From an uncultured virus (IMG/VR IMGVR_UViG_2061766007_000169) (taxonomy: Duplodnaviria > Heunggongvirae > Uroviricota > Caudoviricetes), in the IMG/VR virus record IMGVR_UViG_2061766007_000169: 20,154 nt of DNA. The stretch is one strand, 5' to 3'. Numbering within the stretch: the first letter of the stretch is position 1; each line of letters opens with the position of its first letter. A program made the translations under genes and the position numbers. Of this stretch, positions 4,034-20,154 are shown in pieces. The notes under the pieces are model-generated. The model did no database searches and had not been told where the DNA came from. It saw only the letters and a program-made list of their open reading frames with translations.

Positions 4034-4137
4034 TGGAAATTTCTTCTATGATGATCATGGCCGGTATAGCTTTACATATAGTAGAGCTTGCCGGTCTGAT
4101 AACTTTATACATTATGATGGTATGCAAAGATGAGTGA
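4033..4137 (+). CDS. Small hydrophobic peptide, 34 aa (MEISSMMIMAGIALHIVELAGLITLYIMMVCKDE)
   Basis: ATG overlaps the fibre gene stop (TAATG). One long hydrophobic stretch. Confidence 0.45.
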   Translation: MEISSMMIMAGIALHIVELAGLITLYIMMVCKDE

Positions 4138-4204
4138 ACGAGAAGAACTTGAGATGTTCATCAACGATCTGTTGGATGGACAGAAAGGGGAAGACGATGA
4201 GTGA
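4130..4204 (+). CDS. Small acidic peptide, 24 aa (MSEREELEMFINDLLDGQKGEDDE)
   Basis: ATGAGTGA start/stop overlaps at both ends couple it to the upstream peptide and to the endolysin. Confidence 0.4.
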   Translation: MSEREELEMFINDLLDGQKGEDDE

Positions 4205-5048
4205 GTCTTCTATCTGGAAAAAGCTGAGAGCAAAAGGCTTTTCCGAAACAGCGACGGCAGCGATCATGGGCAATATGCAGGGTGAGAGCGGTCTGATCCC
4301 TTATAGGATTCAGGGTGATTTCAGTTCTGACTATGCCAGATCGAAAGAGTACACCAGGCAGGTAGACAATGGTCAGCTTAGTAAGAATGACTTTCTGTAC
4401 TACGGACCGGGTGGTGGCGGATATGGACTTTGCCAGTGGACATTCTGGTCGAGGAAAGCCGGATTGTATGATCTTGCCAAATCGTATGGCTTGTCTGTTG
4501 GTGATGAGCAGGTGCAGGTAGACTGGCTTTATCAGGAGATTCAGAAACCGGAGTACGTTTATCAGAAGAACGATTTTGAAAAGTACACCGTGTTTGATTT
4601 TCTCCACAGGGATGAGTCGCTTCTTGAAATGACCAAGGCTGTTATGCGCGGTTACGAGAAGCCGTGGGATCAGTCAGATATTGTGGCATTGCAGAGGGCA
4701 TCCTGGGGAAAGAACATCCTCGACAGAAACACAGGGAGTTCACCGGATGCAGATCCGACTCCTACTCCAGAGCCAACTCCAAAACCGAAACCGATTTCTT
4801 CCTGTGCTATCACAGTACCGGAATTGAAGTACGGAGATAAGGACTGGTACAAGGGCGGAGACAAAGGCGTGGCTGTTGCTATGCTCCAGATGGGTCTCAA
4901 GAAAAATGATATTGGGATAGGCATCTGGGGATGTGACGGACATTTTGGCAAAGATACCGAGAAAGCCGTTAAGGAATTTCAGAGGAACAGCAATCTTCCT
5001 GCTGACGGCATTGTCGGTCAGGATACCTGGCAGGTATTGTTTCAGTAG
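4197..5048 (+). CDS. Endolysin: phage tail lysozyme (Phage_lysozyme2-like) domain, Pro/Thr linker and C-terminal peptidoglycan-binding (PG_binding_1-like) domain
   Basis: AAIMGNMQGESG, GYGLCQWT and YEKP motifs; linker PTPTPEPTPKPKP; DGHFGKDTEKAVKEFQ...ADGIVGQDTW. ATG at 4197 follows RBS AGAAAGGGG and is preferred over the ORF-track GTG at 4134. Confidence 0.9.
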   Translation: MSESSIWKKLRAKGFSETATAAIMGNMQGESGLIPYRIQGDFSSDYARSKEYTRQVDNGQLSKNDFLYYGPGGGGYGLCQWTFWSRKAGLYDLAKSYGLSVGDEQVQVDWLYQEIQKPEYVYQKNDFEKYTVFDFLHRDESLLEMTKAVMRGYEKPWDQSDIVALQRASWGKNILDRNTGSSPDADPTPTPEPTPKPKPISSCAITVPELKYGDKDWYKGGDKGVAVAMLQMGLKKNDIGIGIWGCDGHFGKDTEKAVKEFQRNSNLPADGIVGQDTWQVLFQ

Positions 5049-5935: not shown

Positions 5936-7102
5936 ATGGCAACTAGACTAGCCGGGGTCAATACGGCCTCTCAGGCTGTGCCTACTATAAGCATTCAATC
6001 ACCGGTTAAGATTACGAATCCGACGGCTGCTCAGGCGGTAAGTGATCCTGCCATTAACAAGATAGATTCTGTAGCAACGCCGTCGAATGGTGCTGCCGTA
6101 GAAAAGATTCAAGGCAATAGAGTTTCACCGATAAAACCTGCTACTACAACGCAGTCAACAGATAATAGCGGAGCGGGTAAATATGGTGGCTACGGCGGAT
6201 ATGGCGGCGGATCGTCTGAAGCTGAACCACAGAAGAAAGACTGGAGCGGATCGATAGGGTCTGATCCGGATGCGATCAATAGGCTTCTTAATACGGATCA
6301 GTGGGCGCAGAATAACAAGGATCTTATGGCTGGTGCCGGTATTGACGGCGATGTGAATATCGGAAGAATCAACCACATCGATACTGTCCAGGAAGAAGCT
6401 ATGCTGAAGCAGATAACGGATGCTCAGAAAGAGCAGGCTGAGTTGAATGCGCAGCATACTGTAGAGACCGGAGTTAAAGATCTTCAGCGTAACATGGAAG
6501 ATATGCAGCCGGAGTTCCAGACAATGCGTGATCAGGTCGATACTGATGAGCAGAGAGCGCTTGACAATCAGGTTCTCTACTCGGAAGCAAGAGGTGATCG
6601 TGGCGGTATCGGTGCGGCGCAGTACGGAGCCATACAGAATAACGCCGCTACTAACCGACTTACTGTGCAGAAACAGCAGAATAAGTTAGCGAGTGATACC
6701 GCAAGACAGATAGCTGATTTACGTTCTCAGGGTGATTTTGAGAAAGCCAATCAGCTTTTAAGCATTACACAGAATTATTTAAGCCAGTTGATGGATCTGT
6801 TTACCTGGGCGAAGGAGACGAACCTTGGTATTGATGAGTTCAACTCTCAGATCGATCAGTGGGAAGAGAACTATAAGTTAAGTCTGCTTGGTGCAGAGAT
6901 TGATGTGGCGAATGCTACAGGAGCGTTCAGCAACGGAACTCCGACATACGCTGCGTGGATGAAAGCGAGAGACGATCTGGCGGCATCCGGTCAGGCATTA
7001 TTGCAGTCCGGTGTAGCACCCACGGCTGAACAGCTTGAAGCGATGGGTTGGACGAAAGACCAGGCTATAGCGTATCTCAGCAGGTATTTCCCCTATGTTT
7101 AA
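5936..7102 (+). CDS. Hypothetical Gln/Ala-rich coiled-coil protein, likely internal virion/ejection protein, 388 aa
   Basis: RBS AAGGAG. Disordered N-terminus, long Q/A/D/E-rich helical core with an ARGDRGG turn. Directly upstream of the giant gene. Confidence 0.6.
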   Translation: MATRLAGVNTASQAVPTISIQSPVKITNPTAAQAVSDPAINKIDSVATPSNGAAVEKIQGNRVSPIKPATTTQSTDNSGAGKYGGYGGYGGGSSEAEPQKKDWSGSIGSDPDAINRLLNTDQWAQNNKDLMAGAGIDGDVNIGRINHIDTVQEEAMLKQITDAQKEQAELNAQHTVETGVKDLQRNMEDMQPEFQTMRDQVDTDEQRALDNQVLYSEARGDRGGIGAAQYGAIQNNAATNRLTVQKQQNKLASDTARQIADLRSQGDFEKANQLLSITQNYLSQLMDLFTWAKETNLGIDEFNSQIDQWEENYKLSLLGAEIDVANATGAFSNGTPTYAAWMKARDDLAASGQALLQSGVAPTAEQLEAMGWTKDQAIAYLSRYFPYV

Positions 7103-7125
7103 TTCTCTTTGAGGAGATGTAAAGA

Positions 7126-10100
7126 ATGGCGAAATTGTTCGATATTAACAGTATAAGGCAGAATATTTCCGGCAGCACACCGGAACCGGCAAGTGTACCG
7201 ACCCCTGCCCCAGCACCGCCGAAGTTAACTATTCCGAAGAATACACAGGAGCAGCCCCCTGCTCCTACCACACCCTCTGCTCCAAAGTTTACTATTCCTA
7301 AAAATAATGGAATGTCGGTTGACAGATCGAGGGTAAGTATTACTCCGGAAGAACTTACCTCTCGGTTAAAAGGCGCGAATATCCAGACTCCGTTCAAGTC
7401 TCCGGAGCAGAAAGCAGAATCTGCAAAGCCGGTTAATCCGTTCAGGCCATATGTGAATCCGGATACCAAGGCTTCTATGAGAGAGATCCCTGCGTTTCAG
7501 AGGAACACAGCAAGCTGGCTGAATATTGAGGGAACTACCGGAACATCACGTAATCGTCCTAATGGGAAGATGTACGACTGGATTGACTATACCGATGAGA
7601 ATGGTAACCAGGTTTCCGGTATGTGGAGTTGGTGGGATGACAACGGCAAGAGATTCAATGCCGTATCTTCCTTTGCCCAGGATGGTCAGTGGCATGACAG
7701 ATCTTCCATGCGTGGTTATATGCAGGAAGCCGCAAACCTCTACTATGACTATGACGAGATGGCTGACTACATGACCGGAATTATCCGTGACATGGAGAAC
7801 ACTATCAAGACAACGAAGTATGAGACAGAAGCTGCGAAGAAAGCTGACGAAGCTTACCTTGCTTCCATGCGGACTAACCTTGATGGTGCAAAGGCTCTGC
7901 GTGATTCTTCCAGAAAACTCTATGACTATATGTCCACGCAGAACGAATACATGGATGCCTACGATGACTACCATGTGAAAGACGCTTCTGACTCAAAGAA
8001 CTATTCTGAGACATATACCTCCGCTGAGTATGGAGAAATCCCCGGCGGTCGTACACCGGAAGATTGGGATATCGTTATTGAGTCACTGAACGATGAACTC
8101 GACAGAATGCCGGAAGACAGTCCGAATGGCGTTTTAACACGCGCTCGTGAGGAGAAGAAGAGACAGCTTGTAATAGCTGAGTATGCAAGGGGCAAGGCAG
8201 CCGAAGAGAAGGAACAGATAGAGAAAGACAACCTCGGTCTGATGCTTGGTCGTGAGTACTATAATGTGAGTGACGCTAAAGGCTGGCGTAACATCGAGAC
8301 AGATTTGCAGACACAGCTTGACGCTATTCCGGAGACGGAGACAGAAGAGCGGAAGTCTGTTCAGGATCGCCTTGACTATGTGCATGACTTCGTTAAAGCC
8401 GGTGAGTACAAGGACTTCTATGATAAATGGAAAGATGTTTCAGACGATGAACTCATCCGCCGTATCATGGAGCTTGGGGCAGATCCGGAAAAAACCGAAG
8501 CAGATATTAAGCCTGTTGAGACAAACTCCGGGTCAGTTGATGCTCAGATCGAGGAACTTCAGAGCAAGCTTGAAAGACTTGACAGCACTTCACAGGAGTA
8601 TCTTGATACAGCGAAACAGCTTAAGGAACTTCGCGCTACAAGTGAAGCGGATAAAGCGAAAGCTGAAGAAGAGAAAGCAAAGGCGGAAACTCCGGCAGAG
8701 AAGACTCCGGCTGAACTTCGTGCGGAGAAAGAGGAAGCAGAGCGTAAACAGCTTGAACTCGACGCCATCTCCTACATCCGTGACATCCGTCTGATGACCG
8801 GATCGTCTAAAGCATTTGAGGATTATAAGAAAGCTAACCCCGGTGCTACAGCAGCTGATTGGGTTGAGAGCGTAAAGGCAAATGCCGACGAGAAAGAAGC
8901 CTTGCTGGTTAAAGCGGAAGATGCCGCAGCGGATGCCGAAGAGGATATGCACAAGCTTCGCTCCCGTCTTGACGAAGCTATCCGAGTTGCCATGGCAGAG
9001 GGAAGAGAAGTAACTCTTGACGATATTAAGACCGACGATCTTAATCTGCATGGTGTTGAGATCGATATCACGGATCTCGATAAGACGGAGCAGGAACTTG
9101 ACGCTCTTCTGAATAAGGATATAGAAGCCGCACGTATGGCTCTGTCCTACGCAAGACAGCAGAAAGCCTGGGCGGATGCCTATTCCGAGTTCGATATGAC
9201 ACAGCAGCCTGACTATAAGGATAAGGTTAAGGAAGGCTGGAAGATAATGGGGTCTGCGGAAGATCTTAAGAATCTTCTTCAGGATGTACGTGATCTGGTT
9301 ACTTCAATTGGTACTGATACCTATGAAGAAGTAGAACTTACTCCGGAGCAGGAAGAGAGAGCGAGAGAACTTATTCTGTCGATCAATCCGAATGTGACAG
9401 AGAAACAGATGGGGCCGCTCATTGCCGACTATGCGAAGAAGACATATGGTCGTGTTACTAATGATGTAAGGGCGATGAGGCTTCTTACGGACTATGGGTT
9501 TAGCGAGGAAGACGCCCAGTCGATGATTGATAAGCTGAAGGTCGGTGGCAATGACGAGAAGATTCTCGATGCTCTGACGCCGTTTGTCGTTGACGATGGT
9601 AAGATGTCTTTCTCTGAAATGATGGACTCTGTCTGGAAACCAATAGCCGCTACCGGAATTGAGAAAGGCGAGTTCTCTCCCGAACAGCTTAGTAACTACT
9701 ATTATATATTAGCGACAGAGGGTTTGTCTGCTGCAACAGACTACGCTCTTAAAGTAAATAACCAGCTTACTTCTGGCTATCGTGATGAGATGCGGAAGAA
9801 GATGGCGCTTCTTAATGACTACCGGGCAGATCATTCTACCGGATTTGAAAAGGGTCTTCAGTACGTAGCTACTCCTTGGGTAACAGGACTGATGAATCTT
9901 ACCGGAATAGCTGATACGTTTAAGTACATGGGTCAGGTCGGTCATCTTGGAAATACCATACTGTCCGAAGCACCTTCTTTGTCAGAAGCCGCCGATTGGA
10001 TTACACAGGATGTTAACCGCCAGCTTGTAAGAGACGGAGCATCCCAGTTTGTTTTGCTTATTAATAACGCTTACGGAAGTGCCGTACAGAGCTATGAAGC

Positions 10101-13100
10101 TATGACGGCTGGCGGGTATCTCGCAAAGTTCCTTGGCATTAACGAAAGTGTCGTTCTGAACCTCGGTGGTAAATACGGAAAGAGCGCTCACGAACTTATA
10201 ACCACCGCTTTTACTGATGCGGCATTCTTTGGTTCTGCCGCTGCAAGCCGATACAGAGAACTCACAGATCGTGGAGTTGCTCCGGAAAAGGCAATGAATT
10301 CTGCTATATCGGCCGGCCTGTGCGAAGCTATTTTCGAACATCTGTCCATTGAGACCTTGTACCACGCTAAAGATGTTGCGGACTTTACCGGAATAGGTGA
10401 TGTTGTTCTGTCAACGATTATCGGCTCAGGCATTGAGGGTTCTGAAGAAGTATGTACAGAACTGGCTAACTTCATCTGCGACAAGATTATACTTGGCATA
10501 GAGGGCGATTTCTTCCAGTCTATCGAAGCCTATAAAGATATGGGTATGTCCGAGGACGAAGCGTGGGGGAAAGCAGTTAAAGACTTTGCCAGCCAAGTCG
10601 GTGAAGCCGGTCTTTCCGGTTTCATATCCGGCGGTATGTCCATTAGTCTGCGTACTACCGGTGCATACGCACGGGAGATGTTGAGCGTAAAGGACTACAA
10701 TAGGGCGCGTGGTGACACGTATCTGAAGCATCAGTATGCCGATGGTAAGAACGGCGGACAGGCTCTTGGCGAGTTTCTTTCCTCTTATAAGTTCTTTGAT
10801 GAAATAGACAGCGGGAACTATACCGAGACACAGCACGAGGTATTCGACACAATTAAGAATCTCGCTGATAAAGCTTCAAGAGGAATCGCTTCTGCTGAAG
10901 AGGTTGGCCGTCTAGTTTCCCTCGCAGACAGTATTGATCAGAAGATCATAGATGACTTTATCCAGGCTAACAAAGACTACGCTTGGCAGACAGATCCGGT
11001 TAGAGCATCTCGGGTTGCAAAGAATGATCTGGACGCTTTGCTTGGTGTGGATAAGGCTAACGCTTATCTCCAGGCTGTCGGTAATAATCCGGACGCATTC
11101 GTTGTAGATGATTTCTACAAAGGAATGATCGACGCCGGAACTACCATGACTAAGGATGGCATTAATACTACTGAATCGTTCTTACAGCAGGTGCTTACCG
11201 GAAACGGACAGTTAAGTGCGGAAGCTATTGCAGATGAAGTAAAGAACCTTACAGATCCGAAAGCACAGCTTTACATCCTTGAGTTCTTAAGAAGTCATCA
11301 GCAACAGGGCGCTGCTCAGGCAGCTGCACAGGCAGAGGATGTCAATCAGCCGTTTGACTTCGTTATAGATGAGAGTCTTACCCAAGAGGATATTCAGTCA
11401 AAAGAAGGATCGGAAAACCTCGCAGAGGTTCTTACCAGAACCCTGACAGCTACATGGGATCGTGCGGTAAAAGCCGCTTCGGATTTCATGGTAATGAATC
11501 AGTCCTTTGCCAAACTGCAGGAGATGGCTCAGGAGACTTTGAAGCAGGATGCGAGGACGGAAGGGACAGCAGCTTTTGCGGAGTCAGAATCAGATGAGAC
11601 CACACCTGCGTTGTCAGATTTTAGGGATGACGGAGACAGCGTAACATTCCGTGGTAAGAAGTTTAATCGTAAAGAGTATGTGGCTTCTGTTATGGAAGGT
11701 AAAGATCCGTTCTCCGGTGAGACGGTAGAAAATACTACTGAGGAGTGGGCTAACAAATCCTTCGATGCTCTGCTTGAGAGGGCATCTGACGAGAGTTTCG
11801 GCAAGAGCGATGAGATGTCTGCCGAGATGGTAAACTTCGATCTGGCAAAGCATACGCCCAAGGAAAAGGCAACTGCGACAACAGCTAGTGCTACGGCTGA
11901 AACGAATGCGGATAAAGCTGCTGGCGGTGAGTCGAAGAAGACTACTTCAAAGACCAAGCCGAAGAATATTCCGGCTAAGAAGAACACTCCTAAAGGCAGG
12001 AACAAAGCGGAGTTGAAAGCGGATAAGGCTGCTGGTGGAGAGTCGAAGAAGACTACTCCAAAGAAGACAGAGCCGAAGAATATTCCGGCTAAGAAGAACC
12101 TTCCTAAAGGAAAGAACAAGGCGGAAGAAAAAGCTGATACCGCCGCCGGAAGTACGGAAGAGACTACAACTCCGGTAGAAACCGCACCGAAGACTGACGA
12201 AGCTACAGAACTCACCGGAGAGGAACTCGCCCTTGCACAGAAAGAAGATCTGGACCGTATTGAGCGTGAGTTCAGAGACGAGATGGGCGAGACTTCTGAA
12301 GAAGTTCCTACCGTTGAAGAACTCAGAGATCAGGAGATCGAGTCGGAAACAGACGAGGGGGAAACCTCTTTCGGAACTACAGAGGGAAGCACGACCAGGA
12401 CATGGGATGATACATTCCAGCTTGACGGCGAGAGTATTACGAGAGCGGAGTTTGTTCAGTCATATATGTCCGGTACAGATCCTCTTACCGGAGAAGACAC
12501 ATATCCCCTGACTCAGGCACAGGCGAATGCGGCATTCGACAGAACCTATGCCTATGCTATGCAGCAGGGCGGATCTATCGATGGTGACGGAAGTTACTCC
12601 ACAGACGCAAATGTTAAGACGGGTGTTGTATCTGATGTCCGTCAGCTTGCTCTTGAGAACGAACTCAATGCTCTGGAATCCATTCTTAAGAATAAGAAAG
12701 AAGCCGGAGACACTATCGGAAGAGGTCTGCTTCAGAAGATTGACTATGCCAGAAAGAGAATTCAGGACGCACTTGGCAGACAGATCACGAGACTTGGCTC
12801 TGATGTAGAGTCCAGGCGGAAAGAACTTAATGACCAGCTTAAGGCTATCGACAGCCGTATGAACCAGATCCGACAGTACATTAAGAACAAAGCTGTTGGG
12901 TCTCTTATTTTCAATAAGGAACTCGACGGTCTCAAAGCCAAGAGACGGGATGTTAAGGCAAAGCTGACCAGCCTGAATAACGCTGTAGCGGCTTACAACA
13001 CCGCAGTAGACAAACTTGAAGACTGGCGTAACAGAATGTACGCTACTGACTATTACACAATTCTCGGAGGGTTAACGTATGACGGGAGATCGAGTACAGA

Positions 13101-15290
13101 TAGAAACACCGAGCGGACAGGTGATGTGGGTGACGCCGGAAGCAGCAGAACGGATGTCAACACTTCCGCCGACAGAACAGGCACAACTGAGGGAGCAGGC
13201 GTCAAAACGGAAAGACGCACTGCTAGAAGCGTTGAACAAGTACTATCCGAAGCAGGATTAAAGCTTAAAGGTACTGTTGCCCTCGACACCGCAACGGTTA
13301 CAGCGAGGGATATATACAATGACAAGTCGCTTCCAAGAAGTGTAAAGACCGCAATACTCCATGCTTTGCGTAACGGCGTAAGCCGGGTGCTTATTACAGA
13401 CGGAACACTTCAGAACGAGTCCGGTCAGAACATCGGTGGTTATACACACGCTACAAAAGAGAACGGCATTGACCGTTCTATTTTTATAATAAACAAGCAG
13501 TCGAAGATACCGATGCAGCAGAACATTCTGCACGAGTATGTTCACCATATGCTGGGCAAACTCGCTCCTCAGAACAGAGCGTCATTCCTTCGCAACGCTA
13601 TGAACGTGCTGTTCCGCGGTCGGCAGGATCTGTTTGAAGCGGTATATAATACCTACCTTGACGATTATGTAAAAGCCTATAACCTGACGCTTGATGCTGA
13701 CGGCAAACTCTCTCCGGAGCAGGCTCTTGATATCTACGAAGAAATCGTTGCGGATATGCATGGCATGATCCCAAGGTTTACTGCCGCCCAGGATGAGAAG
13801 CTTAATGCGGCTATGGCCCCATTCCTGGTTGATATGCGTGGCAGACTTCTTCGCTACATGGAACTCTCCGGTCTTGAGGATTACTCAAGAGAGAAATGGA
13901 TAGGCGAGGATCATCAGGGATTGACTCACTATGATGTCGAGGACTTTGTCGGAACACGTTCTGCTATGGGCGGAGTTGTAGAGGGTAAAGCTGTTTCGCC
14001 GCAGGTAGCTACAGAAACCGGAATGCTGGTGGATGCGATTGAAGTGCCGAATGGCGATACCGGAACACCTGAAATCATGAACGTGTCCGGTGATAGGAAT
14101 TTGAGCGGTAAGGCATCAATCGCGCCGGAGTATGAAGCCACTCCGAAGCAGAGCATTAAGGTCAACAACAGTTCTGTAACGAAGAAGACTCTTACGGATA
14201 AGAAAGGTAATCTTGTTAATCGGACTGTCCGTGAAGTACGTGATGAAGCTTTCCATAAGAACAGAGAGTTTATGGCGGAGCAGGGAGAAGCCGGAATAAG
14301 GAAGTTCAATTCCTTCCTTGATAAGGTAGCTGACTGGCTTACCAATACGGCTGCTCAGAAATTCCGTTATCTGAACTTCGAAGACATTAACAATGCCACT
14401 CTTAAAGTTGATCCGGTAAGCAACCAGTTAATCCTTACTTCTATGGTTAAGAATGGTGACTATGCCGTCAACATAGACTTCGGTACTATATGCGAACGCA
14501 GACAGGCGCTCCAGACAATCATGAACGAATTGCTTGAGGGTGCAAGTTATGACGAGAACGGTATTAAAACCGTTCAGCTTAATGCGAAGTCCATCCACAA
14601 AATCAATGAAGCACTCCGTGATGCCGGAATTAATACCCAGTGTCTGATCTGCTTCGTGGAGACAAAACGCTACAATCAGACAAAGCAGTTTGCGGAATTC
14701 ACAGAACTGTGGAACAACGAAGTAAAGAAGTACACGGATTCCAATGAGTTCTTTAAATTCAGAAAAGGCGCTAAAGAATTAACGGAAGAGCATATCGAAG
14801 CAAGACGGAAAGCTCTTGACGGATACAGCGGATACGGCAAGGGCGTTAACACCGAGAAAGCTGTAGCTGATATGGTTAAGCGTCTGGCTAAATACTCTCC
14901 GGAGGATCTGAAGCTGCTTGATATAAACGATATCGCTTCTTCTAAAGGTCGCACAAGCATCAGTCAGTCCTTCCCGGATCTCGATGGCCTTATTAAGAAG
15001 AAGGGCGGGAGTGCCGCTCCGAAGCCGGTATATGGATACATTCCGTATAACGGCGAGATCGAGGGTATGTACAAGCAGAAGAGGAAAGACGAAAAAGAAG
15101 AACAGGCCCATCAGAGACTTAGAGATTACATGAAGTCTATCGCCGGAGTTCGTTCGCAGTCCTTCTCCGACTTCATTATTACCCATGTGTTCGACCATCT
15201 CCAGAAGACCGGCGGTATGGCGGCTATGGGTTTTCCGGGGCATACCTACACCAAGGTTCTTGCACGAGCAGAACTGTTTGGGTTAACAGG
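7126..15290 (+). CDS. Giant polyvalent virion-type protein, part 1 (coiled coils, Gly/Ala-rich membrane-like segment, Lys-rich repeats, HExxH zincin, GP88-like region); continues across the gap
   Basis: RBS GAGGAG; the frame is unbroken up to the N run. HEYVHH at 13531-13548 with EEIVAD at 13738-13755; CxxC at 14641-14652. The ORF-track end at 15411 is an artefact of the gap. Confidence 0.85.
11908..12150 (+). repeat. In-frame tandem repeat of 111/114 nt (about 2.2 copies) encoding Lys/Pro-rich units
   Basis: ADKAAGGESKKTT...PKNIPAKKN.PKG.NKAE starts at 11908 and 12019; a partial third copy (ADTAAG) starts at 12133. Confidence 0.9.
13079..13261 (+). CDS. Nested out-of-frame 60-aa gene inside the giant CDS
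   Basis: GGAGGG at 13066-13071, 7 nt before the ATG. Upstream TTGAAG-17-TACGCT (13016-13044). The host frame becomes a G/R/T/D-rich linker over this span. Confidence 0.6.
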   Translation: MTGDRVQIETPSGQVMWVTPEAAERMSTLPPTEQAQLREQASKRKDALLEALNKYYPKQD

Positions 15291-15300
15291 NNNNNNNNNN
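15291..15300. other. Scaffold gap with duplicated flanks
   Basis: 15241-15290 is identical to 15332-15381 (50 bp, offset 91). Confidence 0.95.
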
Positions 15301-15307
15301 AGGTGCT

Positions 15308-18300
15308 ATGGCAGCGAAAGGCTTTGTTGCTCATACCTACACCAAGGTTCTTGCACGAGCAGAACTGTTTGGGTTAACAGGCGAGAAGATCAATATGTCC
15401 TTACTGTTTGATATCGATCCGAACGTGAACTCCTGGTATGCAGGACTCAGCGAGGAGACACAGGATATCGACTTTAGCGAGGGCAGCGGAAGACTTGGTG
15501 TAGAGAACGCAAGGAATCGTCCGTACAACTTCTCCGACTATCAGGCAAGGATGGAAGAGAAAACGGAATGGGTGCAGTCCTTCCCCTATAAAGACGCTGT
15601 CAGAATTCAGAACACTCCTGTATACAGCAAGAACACCGGAACGATTGGCGTAAGCCATTCCTACTGGCATACGATGTGGATGCTGGCTGACCCGGAGATT
15701 CGTCAGGTGATTGGCTACCACTCCTCAAGTTACCCAGGAGAGATCAAGAATCTTACGCATCTTAATCTGTCTGCTGACTATACCGATGTGCAGAACAATG
15801 TGAAGATAGTTGGTATAGCAAGACCTAATTACGAGATTCCGGATGGAACTCCGAGCTATGCTACAGAACCGGGCAACGCCAAGAAGCTGTCCGGAGATGC
15901 CAAGAGGATTGCTCTTGCAGAGGATGAAGTACGGAAGATCTTCGGTGAATATGCGAATGGTGCTACGGTTGATATCAGCAAAATGCTGAAGAATGCTGTG
16001 GCTGATAAGAATAACAGAGGTAAGAGCAAAGGACAGATTGCTTCTGAAGTAATGCAGAACTTCCTCAATACTCTTAATGACAACGGCTTAACCCTGATCA
16101 CTACAAAAGCCGAAGCCGGCCACGGCTCCTTTAAACTCTATGATGATGTAGAGCAGACGCAGAATCCTTATGAGACTATGGACAACTATATTGCCTATAA
16201 TCTCACAAAAGGCAATCTCCCTGCGTTCTACGAGTTCTCTACCGATCCTAACTACTACAAGCTGATCTTTGACTTCAATATGTTCGACCGTCTGTCCTAC
16301 AATCCGGAAACAGGACTCTATGAAACCTACGCTCCACAGGAGGCTGTTAAGGTTCTGGACGAGAATGGTGAACTGTTGTTCCCCAATAAGGGCGATATCA
16401 TTGATATGCTTGACCACTATGCCACACAGTACGATATCGAGCAACATAAGGTGTACGATTTCATTAATGCGGAAAGCACAATGGACTACGTAAGACAGGT
16501 TACCGGAGTAAAGGCGAGTGTTGACTCTGATGGAATCGAGTTGTCTAGACAGCAACAGAACTACTTCGCAGACTCTAAGGTAAGAGACTCTCACGGAAGG
16601 CTTATTCCTATGTATCATGGCGGATCGACTCTCGGCTATACAGTAATAGACTTCTCTAAAACAGACGATGGCATATCCTACTTCATGACCGATAGTCCTT
16701 ATGTAGCTGCGTCCTATAGCGGGTCTGACGAAGTTCGTTCTCTGATGAGGGATAAAGAGGAGAATAGCCAGTCTGTCTATGATGGATACGAACTCCTTCA
16801 AAAGCATCCGATCAGTATGACAGACGAGGAACTTGCCAGGGGTTACGAACTAGCATCTAAAGTGCTGGATGGGAAAGATATTACCGGAGAAGTTTCGGTA
16901 GTGCCGTTTGAGAAAGCACTGAATGATATTGACACGGATTTACGTAAACGCTTTAAGGCCGCTACCGATTATTACAACGACGATATAGACCATGAGCAAC
17001 TTAAAAACGCAATCTACGCTGGTTATTATGAAGAAATAGAGAAGAATCTTGCCGACATTGGCGACATCATAAACAGCGGTCGGGAACTCTCTAGCAAGGA
17101 TCTAGCTACCATACGAAGTAAATTAAGGCTTGCCCTCGGTGCGATGTTCAACGCAAGGACGGAAGATAAGTTAATATATCTCCAGCTATCTCAATTGTAC
17201 GATCTATCCGACGATCTGTATCACACCGCCGGGGATCTGTTAAACATTAAGGAAGATGACTCAAAGAGAAGCGTTTTTATAACTCCGGATGGAGATATGG
17301 TTACCTACACGCAGTTTGAACTTACTGCTGGTGGTCGTATTTTACAGGCGAATTCTCGTCTTGATGTTGAGATGCTAGACAAAACTTCCGGTGTTTTAAA
17401 GGTCTATGCCAACCTTACTAATCCTTATGTGATAGATGCAGAGGGCGAATCGTGGAGACATATCAGCGCACCGGAAGAAGTCGTAAATTATCTTAAGTCT
17501 ATAAATGAACCGCAGCTTCACTTCTTCTCAGGAAGAGGTGACCTTCTGAAGACCAGAGGTGTAGCGAGATACGCAAAAGACCACGGATATGACGGCGTTA
17601 TTTTCGAAAACCTTGTGGATATGGGCGGCGATCCGGATTTTGATGAAGATACTGAATCAACAGTTGTGATCGCTTTCGAACAGAACCAGGTTAAAGACGC
17701 TGACAATCTGAATCCGACCAATGATGTCGATATGCGGTACAGCATCGACAATCTTCCCGACGGAACACAGTACGTGTGGATCGACAGCAACATCGTTGCT
17801 GAAGCCAAGAAGAATAATCAGAACGTACCGAATTACGTGCAGAGTTATATCGAGCAGGTATTTGAGAAGACAGGCGTTCCGATTGCTACTACTCCGGATG
17901 GACACATGGTCTATGCAGAGGAAGCAAAAAGAACTCCCAAATCCAGATACGGACTTGGGAAAGAATTCACTCACTCTACAGCGAACAAGCGGCTTGGCAA
18001 GAACTTAGCCGAGAAAAAACTCAGATCTGCTACCAACCTTGCAGAACTGGTCGCTATAGCACAGAACGCCACAACAGAATCTACACGGCACACAGACAAT
18101 AAGGACGCTGTCAGTACGGTACGCTACACATCTACCTTTGCTTTCCCTGTGTGGAATCCGGGCAGAACAAAGCTGGAGAACGTAAGGGCGTATGACTGCG
18201 AACTCATTATGAACCTCGGTTCAGACGGCAAGTACTATCTGTATGATGTTCCGGTAATAAAAGAAAACACCGCATCAGCGATTGCTATTCTTAACGAAAA

Positions 18301-19920
18301 GCAAGGGGCTGCGACGAACGCAGCAGGCCAATACGGTGTTTCTGCGGATAGTATAGCAAACACCGAGCAGAAAGTCAATACGCAAAATTCTGCACAGGGC
18401 AGAGCGAGTGTCGAGACAGCAGCGGCTGGCGGCTTCTCTGCATGGGTAAATAGTCTGAAGACAACTCCAACCGCAGAAGATTTCAGAAGCTACTTTGAAT
18501 CTCATCCATCCGATATTAACTTCCTGCGTGAGTATGCTGTTAATAGCGTCCGTGACAAGCGGACCGGCAACAAGAGTAAGACAGCATTTAAGAAATTCGT
18601 AAAGGCTCTTGATCCCAAAGCGATGGCAACTCTGTCTAGCTTTGGTGTATGGAAGAATTACGTTGAGGGCTCTGCTGTTAATCTTCCGTGGTATATTTCA
18701 GACCACAATGACACATGGTACAAGAGTTGTGCAAGGGAATTTAACGATATCCTGGATGAAGCTATTAAGTCCTACCTTAATAAAGACTCCGCAACAGAGG
18801 ACACGGCTCTTACGGATCAGGAGATCGAGAAGCTGAGACCAGATCTTGTTAATGCCATCAGTGCTATTCAGGACAGAGACAGCAATGGGAAGCTTCTTGA
18901 TGAGAAGCTGTTCGATAAGACTCTTGAGTCTCTTCAGTGGCTTTATAAAAATAGTCCGCAGCTGAACTATTTGACCAGACTTGCAAACGCTACATCTGAT
19001 GCTCAGAAGAAAACAATACGTACAGAACTTGAAAAGATGCTGTCCGGTATTGATGACAGGCAGGCTCTGCGGTATATGAGTGCGTACAGTAAGTATGCTA
19101 CTCCGGCTTTTGTCGGGAGAGACTATAAGCAAATCCAGAAAGAGAAGTCTGCACAGAGACTGTTCGCCAATACGATTGAAGCCAGACGGGATGCTATAAA
19201 CAAAGAGGCCGGTCTGAGTACAAATGTAGGTCTTGAAGTGCGCGAGTACAGCATCAATGAAATGAGAGATCTGTTTGATCAGCTTAACACAGAGCCGGAT
19301 CTTACCGCTCTCGCAGATAAAGTATTCCCAGTTGTCGAGAAACTCGGTCTTACTATCCGTGGCGCACAGGCGAAAAATTTCGGTTCCGGTGCGATTGGTC
19401 AGGCTTATGGATCAGTTGTAGAATACAACACCGCTAAGTTTAACGGCCTTGGGGATACAGATCAGTATAAGGCAACCGCCATTCTGCATGAACTTATTCA
19501 TGGCGCTACATCCTACGCTCTGTATGCGGATGAATATCCGGGATGGGGTATTAAGCTTTCTCAAAATATGAGAGACGCAATCAGAGAAATCCGCGCTGTA
19601 CATAGAGAAGTGAGATACGATGAGAAGCTTTCCAATATGTATGGTGCTACGGATGAGCATGAGATGCTGGCAGAACTTTCCAATCCTAAGTTCAGAGACG
19701 CCTTGGAAAAGAAATCTCTGTGGGATAAGATCGTTGATGCTTTCAAGAAATTCTTCGGCATTGAAACGAAGAACGCTCTTGATGCGGCTTCAGCCGGACT
19801 TGATTATCTCCTTGACAACTTCGACTACGATGCCTACCTGAGATATGCGGATGTCCAGAACACTGCACATGGCGAGTCCTATCGTCTGACGGACAGAGCG
19901 AGAGACGCTGTCCATGAAGC
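15308..19920 (+). CDS. Giant polyvalent protein, part 2 (rest of the GP88-like region, ART-PolyVal-like domain, LPD3/BECR-like domain, second HExxH zincin)
   Basis: Begins by repeating HTYTKVLARAELFGLT of part 1. FADSKVRD...MYHG...YFMT...VYANLTNP...GYDGVI...FEQNQVK spans ~16510-17743; DGKYYLYDV lies near 18225-18250; HELIH at 19487-19501 with HEMLAE at 19658. Confidence 0.85.
18255..18343 (-). ncRNA. Putative ~90-nt antisense small RNA forming a three-way junction
   Basis: 16-bp closing stem (18342-18327 with 18279-18264) containing four G-U pairs that form only on the minus strand. Two internal hairpins and a U-rich 3' tail. Starts about 6 nt after a -10 box. Confidence 0.7.
18350..18378 (-). 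promoter_or_regulatory. Internal antisense sigma-A promoter
   Basis: Minus strand: TTGACT (18378-18373), 17 nt ending in TG-c, then TATACT (18355-18350). Confidence 0.75.
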
Positions 19921-19930
19921 NNNNNNNNNN
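19921..19930. other. Scaffold gap with duplicated flanks
   Basis: 19801-19920 is repeated as 19931-20050 (offset 130). The last 50 bp are identical; the rest differs at a few positions. Confidence 0.95.
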
Positions 19931-19931
19931 C

Positions 19932-20154
19932 GACTATCTCCTTGACAACTTTGACTACGATGCCTACTTGAGATATGCTGATGTCCAGAACACCGCACAC
20001 GGCGAGTCCTATCGTCTGACGGACAGAGCGAGAGACGCTGTCCATGAAGCGCGTTATCCCAATATGGTAAAACTGTGGGATGGCTCGTGGATTGACAGAG
20101 ACTACGCTACCTGGAATGAAGAAGACCAGATATGGGAAGAGAAAGAACAGAAGA
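19932..20154 (+). CDS. Giant polyvalent protein, part 3; open at the window end
   Basis: DYLLDNFDYDAYLRY...HEARYPNMVKLWDGSWIDRDYATWNEEDQIWEEKEQK, with no stop before base 20154. Confidence 0.8.

Follow-up and report, generated by a model that had tools for sequence, protein, structure and literature searches.

A probable 60-codon gene embedded out of frame in a giant polyvalent-protein gene of an uncultured Caudoviricetes virus

Can the DNA that encodes a linker of a giant modular protein also be a gene in another frame? The question is raised by a 20,154-nt stretch of DNA from an uncultured virus of the Caudoviricetes (IMG/VR record IMGVR_UViG_2061766007_000169), which at its full length is referred to here as the window. 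A giant polyvalent-protein gene of ~4,200 codons is located on the + strand at 7126-19945. Wholly within it, on the same strand and in the +1 frame, the list of open reading frames (ORFs) has a small ORF of 60 codons plus TAA at 13079-13261. Judged from its sequence, this ORF is probably a genuine embedded gene (estimated probability about 0.72). The case is made by a homologue, by codon statistics that neither frame alone explains, and by a Shine-Dalgarno (SD) sequence followed by an ATG. Same-strand embedded genes are already known, and the small protein encoded here matches no known family or fold.

The first-pass annotation of this DNA described an out-of-frame ORF of 60 amino acids (aa) at 13079 with its own ribosome-binding site, and both are in place. 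The ORF has the sequence quoted there, ends at 13261, and is in frame +1 relative to the giant ORF. The SD sequence GGAGGG at 13066-13071 (+ strand) is 7 nt 5′ of the ATG (7-8 nt for GGAGG) and encodes Gly-Gly in the giant frame. A +1-frame TAA at 13073-13075 (+ strand) closes that frame two codons 5′ of the ATG, so the ATG is codon 2 of the open stretch and the ORF fills the stretch completely. GGAGG is found on the + strand six times in the window and three times in the giant gene, and a start codon follows just one of these three, the site of the small ORF. The three remaining GGAGG-N4-9-ATG sites of the window mark the first codons of ORFs, at 1321 (- strand, a ribbon-helix-helix (RHH) gene), 2855 (+ strand), and 5639 (+ strand). 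At the level of sequence, the small ORF thus possesses initiation signals of its own, GGAGGG and ATG. Neither its length nor its SD-ATG pair stands out alone.

In the giant frame, positions 13078-13260 (+ strand) encode a linker that is rich in T, R, G, D, and S and is predicted to be coil. Over the small ORF this frame reads GGLTYDGRSSTDRNTERTGDVGDAGSSRT..., with a long helix upstream and a module containing an HExxH motif downstream. There is no stop and no restart in the giant frame near the overlap, and the next in-frame Met is far inside the HExxH module. Translation of the linker is therefore required for the modules that lie downstream.

The +1 frame is kept as a protein in two relatives. 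A phmmer (HMMER) search of the 60-aa peptide against 1,835,955,588 representative proteins at E <= 0.001 returned two proteins, P0004 and P0005. P0004 is a called gene on a 36,457-nt contig; its product has 60 aa and 98% identity to the small-ORF product, from which it differs by D46Y. P0005 is a called gene on a 1,037-nt contig, with a product of 58 aa and 44% identity (E 4.4e-6). When the small-ORF product is compared with P0005 (the pair P0002/P0005), 25 of the 55 ungapped columns are invariant, including WVTPE.AER, and the two proteins have DR..IE.P.G...WVTPE.AER, EQ, and KYYP in common. Their ends also match, as the initial Met residues are no more than two residues apart and both proteins stop three residues past KYYP. 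The pair has a Smith-Waterman score of 126; 5000 shuffles give 24.8 +/- 4.9, with 50 as the highest (z 20.7). Read in the giant frame, the DNA of the small ORF yields a score of just 28 against P0005.

These homologues bear on two ways in which the peptide could belong to the giant protein itself. The idea that it is a frameshifted former in-frame domain of that protein is rejected, because the homologues stand alone and begin with Met, and among the representative proteins searched the peptide is not part of any longer chain. Alternatively, a programmed +1 frameshift after 13075, with a stop at 13259, would yield a shortened giant protein whose C-terminal domain is different. GGAGGG would be the frameshift stimulator, as in prfB, and this SD-like sequence is present just 5′ of the point where the +1 frame opens and becomes coding-like. 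However, inspection of 13072-13084 reveals no slippery or stop-hungry codon. Moreover, P0004 and P0005 stand alone as proteins of 58-60 aa, each with its initial Met at the equivalent position, and no long protein ending in the peptide is seen among the 1.84 billion representatives. A programmed frameshift is thus very improbable.

Searches for related loci add no further members. The first-pass annotation had proposed a tblastn comparison of the peptide with phage genomes; carried out with the 60-aa peptide and with P0005, and extended to plasmids, it gave a sole match, at E 10. Nothing usable was obtained with blastn of 12400-14200 against phages, with tblastn of a 500-aa main-frame stretch against plasmids, or with the main-frame stretch as a related-locus query against viral, metagenome, and genome contigs. 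Profile A1, P0005, or the C-terminal part as related-locus queries yielded no usable relatives, and no short protein (30-329 aa) matches a 600-aa main-frame stretch. Two sets of candidates were rejected. Among the genome-contig matches to A1 that were listed, one locus, L001, from a Bryobacteraceae metagenome-assembled genome, is spurious; it corresponds to the N-terminus of a protein of 1499 aa, and the part in common with A1 is only EQAER...TEQAELREQAS. A degenerate DNA pattern for WVTPE.AER picked out two loci in viral contigs, neither of which is related.

Codon usage sets the locus apart from the rest of the giant gene. It was scored as a codon log-likelihood, trained on the remaining coding sequence of the window, in 4142 segments of 183 nt along the giant gene. 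Over the small ORF, the main frame scores 2.97, which is the 0.9th percentile (mean 23.4, standard deviation 7.3), and the +1 frame scores 1.36, which is the 99.9th percentile (mean -35.5, standard deviation 11.3). The +1 score is above that of the main frame in one of the 4142 segments, which starts at 13075, inside the small-ORF locus. The first-pass annotation had suggested that modules carry embedded control elements, and as a generalisation this is not borne out on the + strand of the giant gene, where that single segment has no second coding-like out-of-frame island beside it. Per codon, the small ORF scores 0.109 in its own frame versus 0.066 in the main frame. Of the giant gene's 28 open stretches that are out of frame, no other outscores the main frame, and the runner-up own-frame score is 0.005. 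Per codon, the real small genes of the window have scores of 0.087, 0.109, and 0.37, a range that includes the small ORF.

Could such an ORF have arisen by chance from a purine-rich linker? Out-of-frame stretches of at least 45 codons are numerous in the giant gene, SD-ATG pairs occur at chance frequency, and synonymous resampling of the giant frame leaves the +1 frame open in 2535 of 20,000 cases (12.7%). Only 0.43% of those open cases reach the observed +1 score, however, and about 11 of the 20,000 resamples are both open in +1 and equally coding-like. A chance ORF would also have to account for the homologue found among 1.84 billion proteins, for the unique codon-usage island, and for the confident predicted fold of the peptide. 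A chance origin is hardly credible in the face of these results.

When, conversely, the small ORF is resampled synonymously, the giant frame is open in just 55 of 20,000 cases. Third positions of the small ORF are 86% purine (A.38, G.48), versus 46% at third positions gene-wide, and these wobble positions are the first codon positions of the giant frame. The purine bias gives a giant-frame linker that is rich in G, D, E, A, T, S, R, and N, and it keeps stops out. For each frame, the observed quality exceeds what the other one by itself would predict, which is the expected signature of dual coding. Within the overlap, P0003, a relative of the giant protein encoded on a 48,015-nt contig, has two giant-frame replacements (K to Q and E to Q); each requires a change at a first codon position, and in the small ORF this change is silent.

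The same figures bear on a further explanation, in which a once independent small gene was trapped by the fusion of two modules and is intact only because the event is recent, the protein being no longer needed and perhaps not even translated. P0005 shows the family as a small protein by itself, as this explanation expects. The sole close relative of the giant protein, P0003, is 98% identical at the small-ORF region, so the history of the locus could be recent. The giant protein is also a mosaic relative to P0003, with 53-100% identity per 100 residues, and frequent exchange of modules is suggested. Against this stand the 55 open cases in 20,000 and the purine-rich wobble positions, which indicate that many substitutions were fixed under the overlap while the small protein, its SD sequence, its ATG, and its stop remained undamaged. 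For a dispensable protein, changes that alter the protein would have done equally well. A scar of this kind is therefore considered unlikely, though it is the least improbable of the competing explanations.

Structure prediction also distinguishes the two readings. AlphaFold2, run with a 3-sequence alignment, predicts defined secondary structure for the 60-aa product at a mean pLDDT of 77.9. The predicted fold is composed of a beta-hairpin (residues 6-9 and 15-18), a short helix (20-27), and a long helix (31-55). The product contains no cysteine and no signal-like hydrophobic stretch. The giant-frame reading, modelled within a 316-residue piece, is coil with no secondary structure and has a pLDDT of 25-35, the lowest of the piece. 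The 60-aa product has no significant match in Pfam, PHROGs, or NCBIfam, and its best match in a PDB profile search has an E of 0.074. The predicted fold has a best Foldseek E of 1.7 and a best VIA-align Z of 4.4, with antitoxin chains at Z 3.1-3.6, which is noise level. Two Atlas look-ups gave no functional clue.

Several results weigh against a genuine gene with a linker read from the same bases. The family is tiny, with two clusters among the 1.84 billion representatives, and a profile search of a 5.8-billion collection added no members. Functional support for the 60-aa product is absent from the family and fold searches, and its language-model 'recognition' values of 1892 and 1844 are below the 2300 typical of known families, a difference that is not decisive. 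The + strand of the giant gene has 28 out-of-frame open stretches of at least 45 codons, and GGAGG-N4-9-ATG occurs in the window at chance frequency (4 versus 3.86 expected). Part of the SD sequence of the small ORF is base-paired in the minimum-energy structure. At 0.11 per codon, the codon score is modest; an antisense ORF that is probably a chance product has 0.178. The two silent changes in P0003 are not significant (p ~0.13), because 77 of 218 single-base replacements gene-wide are likewise silent in +1, and the D46Y difference of P0004 alters both frames. Finally, the main-frame model, built from a single sequence, is of low quality over its whole length (mean pLDDT 41), and the disordered linker is accordingly weakly shown.

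On balance, homology, codon usage, and resampling uphold the first-pass proposal of a nested, probably genuine gene in an atypical linker of the giant protein, with dual coding. The +1 frame would encode a genuine soluble protein of 60 aa that belongs to a very rare family. From the same bases, the main frame would encode a disordered linker of the ~4,200-residue polyvalent protein.

How would the small gene be expressed? The first-pass annotation placed a promoter of its own, TTGAAG-17-TACGCT, at 13016-13044. The letters are found there, and a weak hairpin followed by a T-run at 13460-13479, 3′ of the small ORF, could end a separate transcript. The promoter signal did not hold up, however. 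The hexamers match the consensus at 7 of 12 positions (4/6 and 3/6), and the second is poor. The site is not one of the 19 found by a promoter scan of 7000-20154, and these sites are themselves at chance level (shuffles give 15.8 +/- 4.5). Between 8439 and 17001 the scan has no promoter-like site on the + strand. A working terminator at 13460 would, moreover, cut the giant mRNA too. Separate transcription from an internal promoter is accordingly rated as quite improbable. Initiation within the giant mRNA is a likelier route than transcription from a promoter of its own, and it is the simplest mechanism since the SD-ATG is strong and no credible promoter is seen. The 60-aa product would be made by initiation at its own SD-ATG and would be co-expressed with the giant protein, and a separate promoter would not be needed.

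The RNA around the start is unremarkable in its folding. The local folding energy at the small-ORF start is -9.9 kcal/mol, compared with -13.9 +/- 3.8 for the rest of the giant gene and -6.8 to -19.7 kcal/mol for seven annotated starts. Of the giant-gene segments, 85% are more structured than the start region. No unusual RNA structure is detected in 13030-13130 (fold z +0.74).

Other promoter-like and terminator-like signals were noted along the giant gene. A palindromic hairpin, AGAACGG...CCGTTCT with T-runs, at 13460-13489 is terminator-like on both strands and is located within the coding sequence of the HExxH module, 200 nt past the small-ORF stop. The region 7000-20154 contains 22 terminator-like sites versus 9.8 +/- 3.1 expected, 21 of them on the minus strand. 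This excess probably reflects the purine richness of the coding strand, not a set of real terminators. One hairpin, AGCCGGAATATTCTTCGGCT, is found twice on the minus strand in identical form, at 12090-12071 and 11976-11957. Both copies are in a tandemly repeated lysine-rich segment of the giant protein, KAAGGESKKTT...KNIPAKKN.PKG.NKAE (11957-12114). The best promoter-like site of the scan is TTGACT-17-TATACT with a TG, at 18378-18350 on the minus strand (region 18269-18414). Terminator-like hairpins come after it at 18324-18308 and 18282-18268. All of these signals are antisense to the giant gene, and together they make up what the first-pass annotation had called an sRNA (18255-18378). No Rfam match is found anywhere in the window.

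Which of the two readings came first? The small gene has the better codon usage, a predicted fold, and a free-standing homologue, and it therefore appears older than the linker reading, with the linker as an overprint. The giant gene would later have been read across it, fusing two modules. Afterwards, the wobble positions of the small gene would have been pushed toward purines, keeping the giant frame open.

The giant gene itself is listed as two ORFs, 7126-15411 and 15308-19945, because the assembly has a gap whose ends are duplicated. At 15292-15301 there are ten N, with identical stretches of ~45 bases on either side (15246-15380). P0003, which has 4143 aa, is unbroken across the region of the gap. 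The C-terminal part of the giant protein contains an ART-PolyVal domain (PF18760) at 47.7 bits (cut-off 31.2; E 3.5e-12), and this match above the Pfam cut-off makes it a polyvalent protein in the sense of the portions of PMC5512222 drawn on here.

Relatives of the giant protein are few. P0003 is its only relative over 7126-15285, where the divergent blocks of the mosaic are at about 9226-9525, 10426-10725, 11326-11625, and 11926-12225, and 12226-15285 is 95-100% identical. This pattern suggests module exchange or fast-evolving segments. The N-terminal 2720 aa have no match in phages and one match of 38.6% identity in plasmids, to a Subdoligranulum plasmid over 5% of the query; the plasmid itself gave no match in a whole-genome search. 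The sole part of the giant protein that matches phage records is residues 1262-1508 of 15308-19942 (window positions 19091-19831). These matches, at 26-29% identity, comprise proteins from phage records associated with Helicobacter and a single 'structural protein' of a metagenomic phage.

The module downstream of the overlap is a candidate target of the small protein. Its motif HEYVHH is located at 13531-13548 (+ strand), 90 codons past the small-ORF stop. The first-pass annotation had called the module that follows the nested ORF a zincin; the motif is present, and the label stands on the motif alone, as Pfam and PDB provide no sequence match. Searches with the module (13261-14115) returned nothing significant in PDB and Pfam and no peptidase family at E <= 1. 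The first-pass annotation had suggested a partner, inhibitor, or immunity protein for a neighbouring domain, and no family or fold match points to a function. A tentative, speculative role for the 60-aa product is to act on the giant protein, for example by chaperoning or regulating the neighbouring HExxH module; a partner role there would be attractive in view of the proposed cutting of polyvalent proteins by embedded peptidases. A broader and still more doubtful proposal is that giant polyvalent proteins grow across small resident genes, so that some linkers are working overprints, and that the 60-aa partner controls the HExxH module. If so, a partner made from the same mRNA might hold back self-cleavage until delivery.

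The genes to the left of the giant gene suggest the nature of the element. A GDSL lipase fragment (1-876) is followed by a CopG-type RHH gene of 61 aa at 1136-1321 on the - strand (PF01402, E 2.4e-6), which has a GGAGG-ATG start. A tyrosine integrase gene is located at 1792-2778, and the lysin gene of the window, which encodes a phage-type lysozyme with a peptidoglycan-binding domain, at 4134-5048. The window carries the left portion of a prophage or an integrated mobile element. The RHH gene is transcribed away from the integrase gene, and the CopG-type RHH protein is likely a regulator or excision-control protein of the element.

Small genes inside larger ones are known from several systems. 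The embedded gene described here is, like Rz1 in Rz, wholly embedded on the same strand and out of frame. Rz1 is read in the +1 frame of Rz from its own start, is expressed with Rz, and has a product that binds the Rz product. This product is an outer-membrane lipoprotein with a lipobox cysteine. An Rz1-like spanin was considered for the 60-aa product and is rejected because the product has no cysteine. It also differs from Rz1 in having no signal-like hydrophobic stretch, and the lysin gene of the window is elsewhere. Rz1 and Rz constitute the two-component spanin of phage lambda and are a case of same-strand, out-of-frame embedding in the portions of PMC5295617 and PMC6139136 used here.

A closer parallel in architecture is comS of Bacillus subtilis. 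According to the relevant part of PMC12915044, comS is located in a distinct frame inside srfAB, a huge multi-modular gene, and is expressed from the operon promoter; a comS knockout made use of changes that are silent in the srfAB frame. As with comS and srfAB, the gene described here is a small gene in another frame of a giant modular gene, though a relationship in sequence to comS is not expected. Unlike comS, which is a competence regulator in a chromosomal nonribosomal peptide synthetase (NRPS) operon, it is hosted by a polyvalent protein of a mobile element, and the overlap is on a linker. A further difference is that the host reading appears to be the younger of the two.

In E. coli, GndA is a same-strand, out-of-frame nested small protein inside gnd, as described in the part of PMC11230408 drawn on here. 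Overlap regions tend toward disorder in one frame, and the usual model of overprinting has the nested ORF as the newcomer, in the consulted portions of 10.1101/229690 and PMC8227390. The present case resembles GndA and viral overprinting in having an out-of-frame small ORF in an annotated gene with one frame predicted to be disordered. It is unlike the usual overprinting in that the better codons, a predicted fold, and a homologue that stands alone all belong to the nested ORF, and the host reading looks newer.

Polyvalent proteins occur in phages and conjugative elements, and embedded metallopeptidase domains have been proposed to cut them into units, as set out in sections of a 2017 survey (PMC5512222). 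The giant protein is like those surveyed there in its size, its many modules, and its ART-PolyVal domain. It differs from those with embedded metallopeptidases in that its HExxH module matches no Pfam peptidase model. The words 'overlap' and 'frameshift' are absent from the text of the survey, and in the portions drawn on here no passage on 'nested', 'embedded', or 'processed' is about a gene within a gene (PMC5512222). In the literature searched, no paper connects polyvalent proteins to genes that are nested or overprinted, and the one paper that mentions both polyvalent proteins and overlapping genes does so on unrelated subjects.

If the favored reading is true, the small gene adds a new protein family. 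Standard gene callers skip same-strand ORFs that are wholly inside longer ones, and proteins of this kind are therefore left unannotated. A linker of a giant anti-host protein would be the second reading of an older gene, which reverses the usual direction of overprinting. A co-expressed factor may also regulate the processing of the polyvalent protein, for which the 2017 survey, in the portions drawn on here, offers only the hypothesis of embedded peptidases (PMC5512222).

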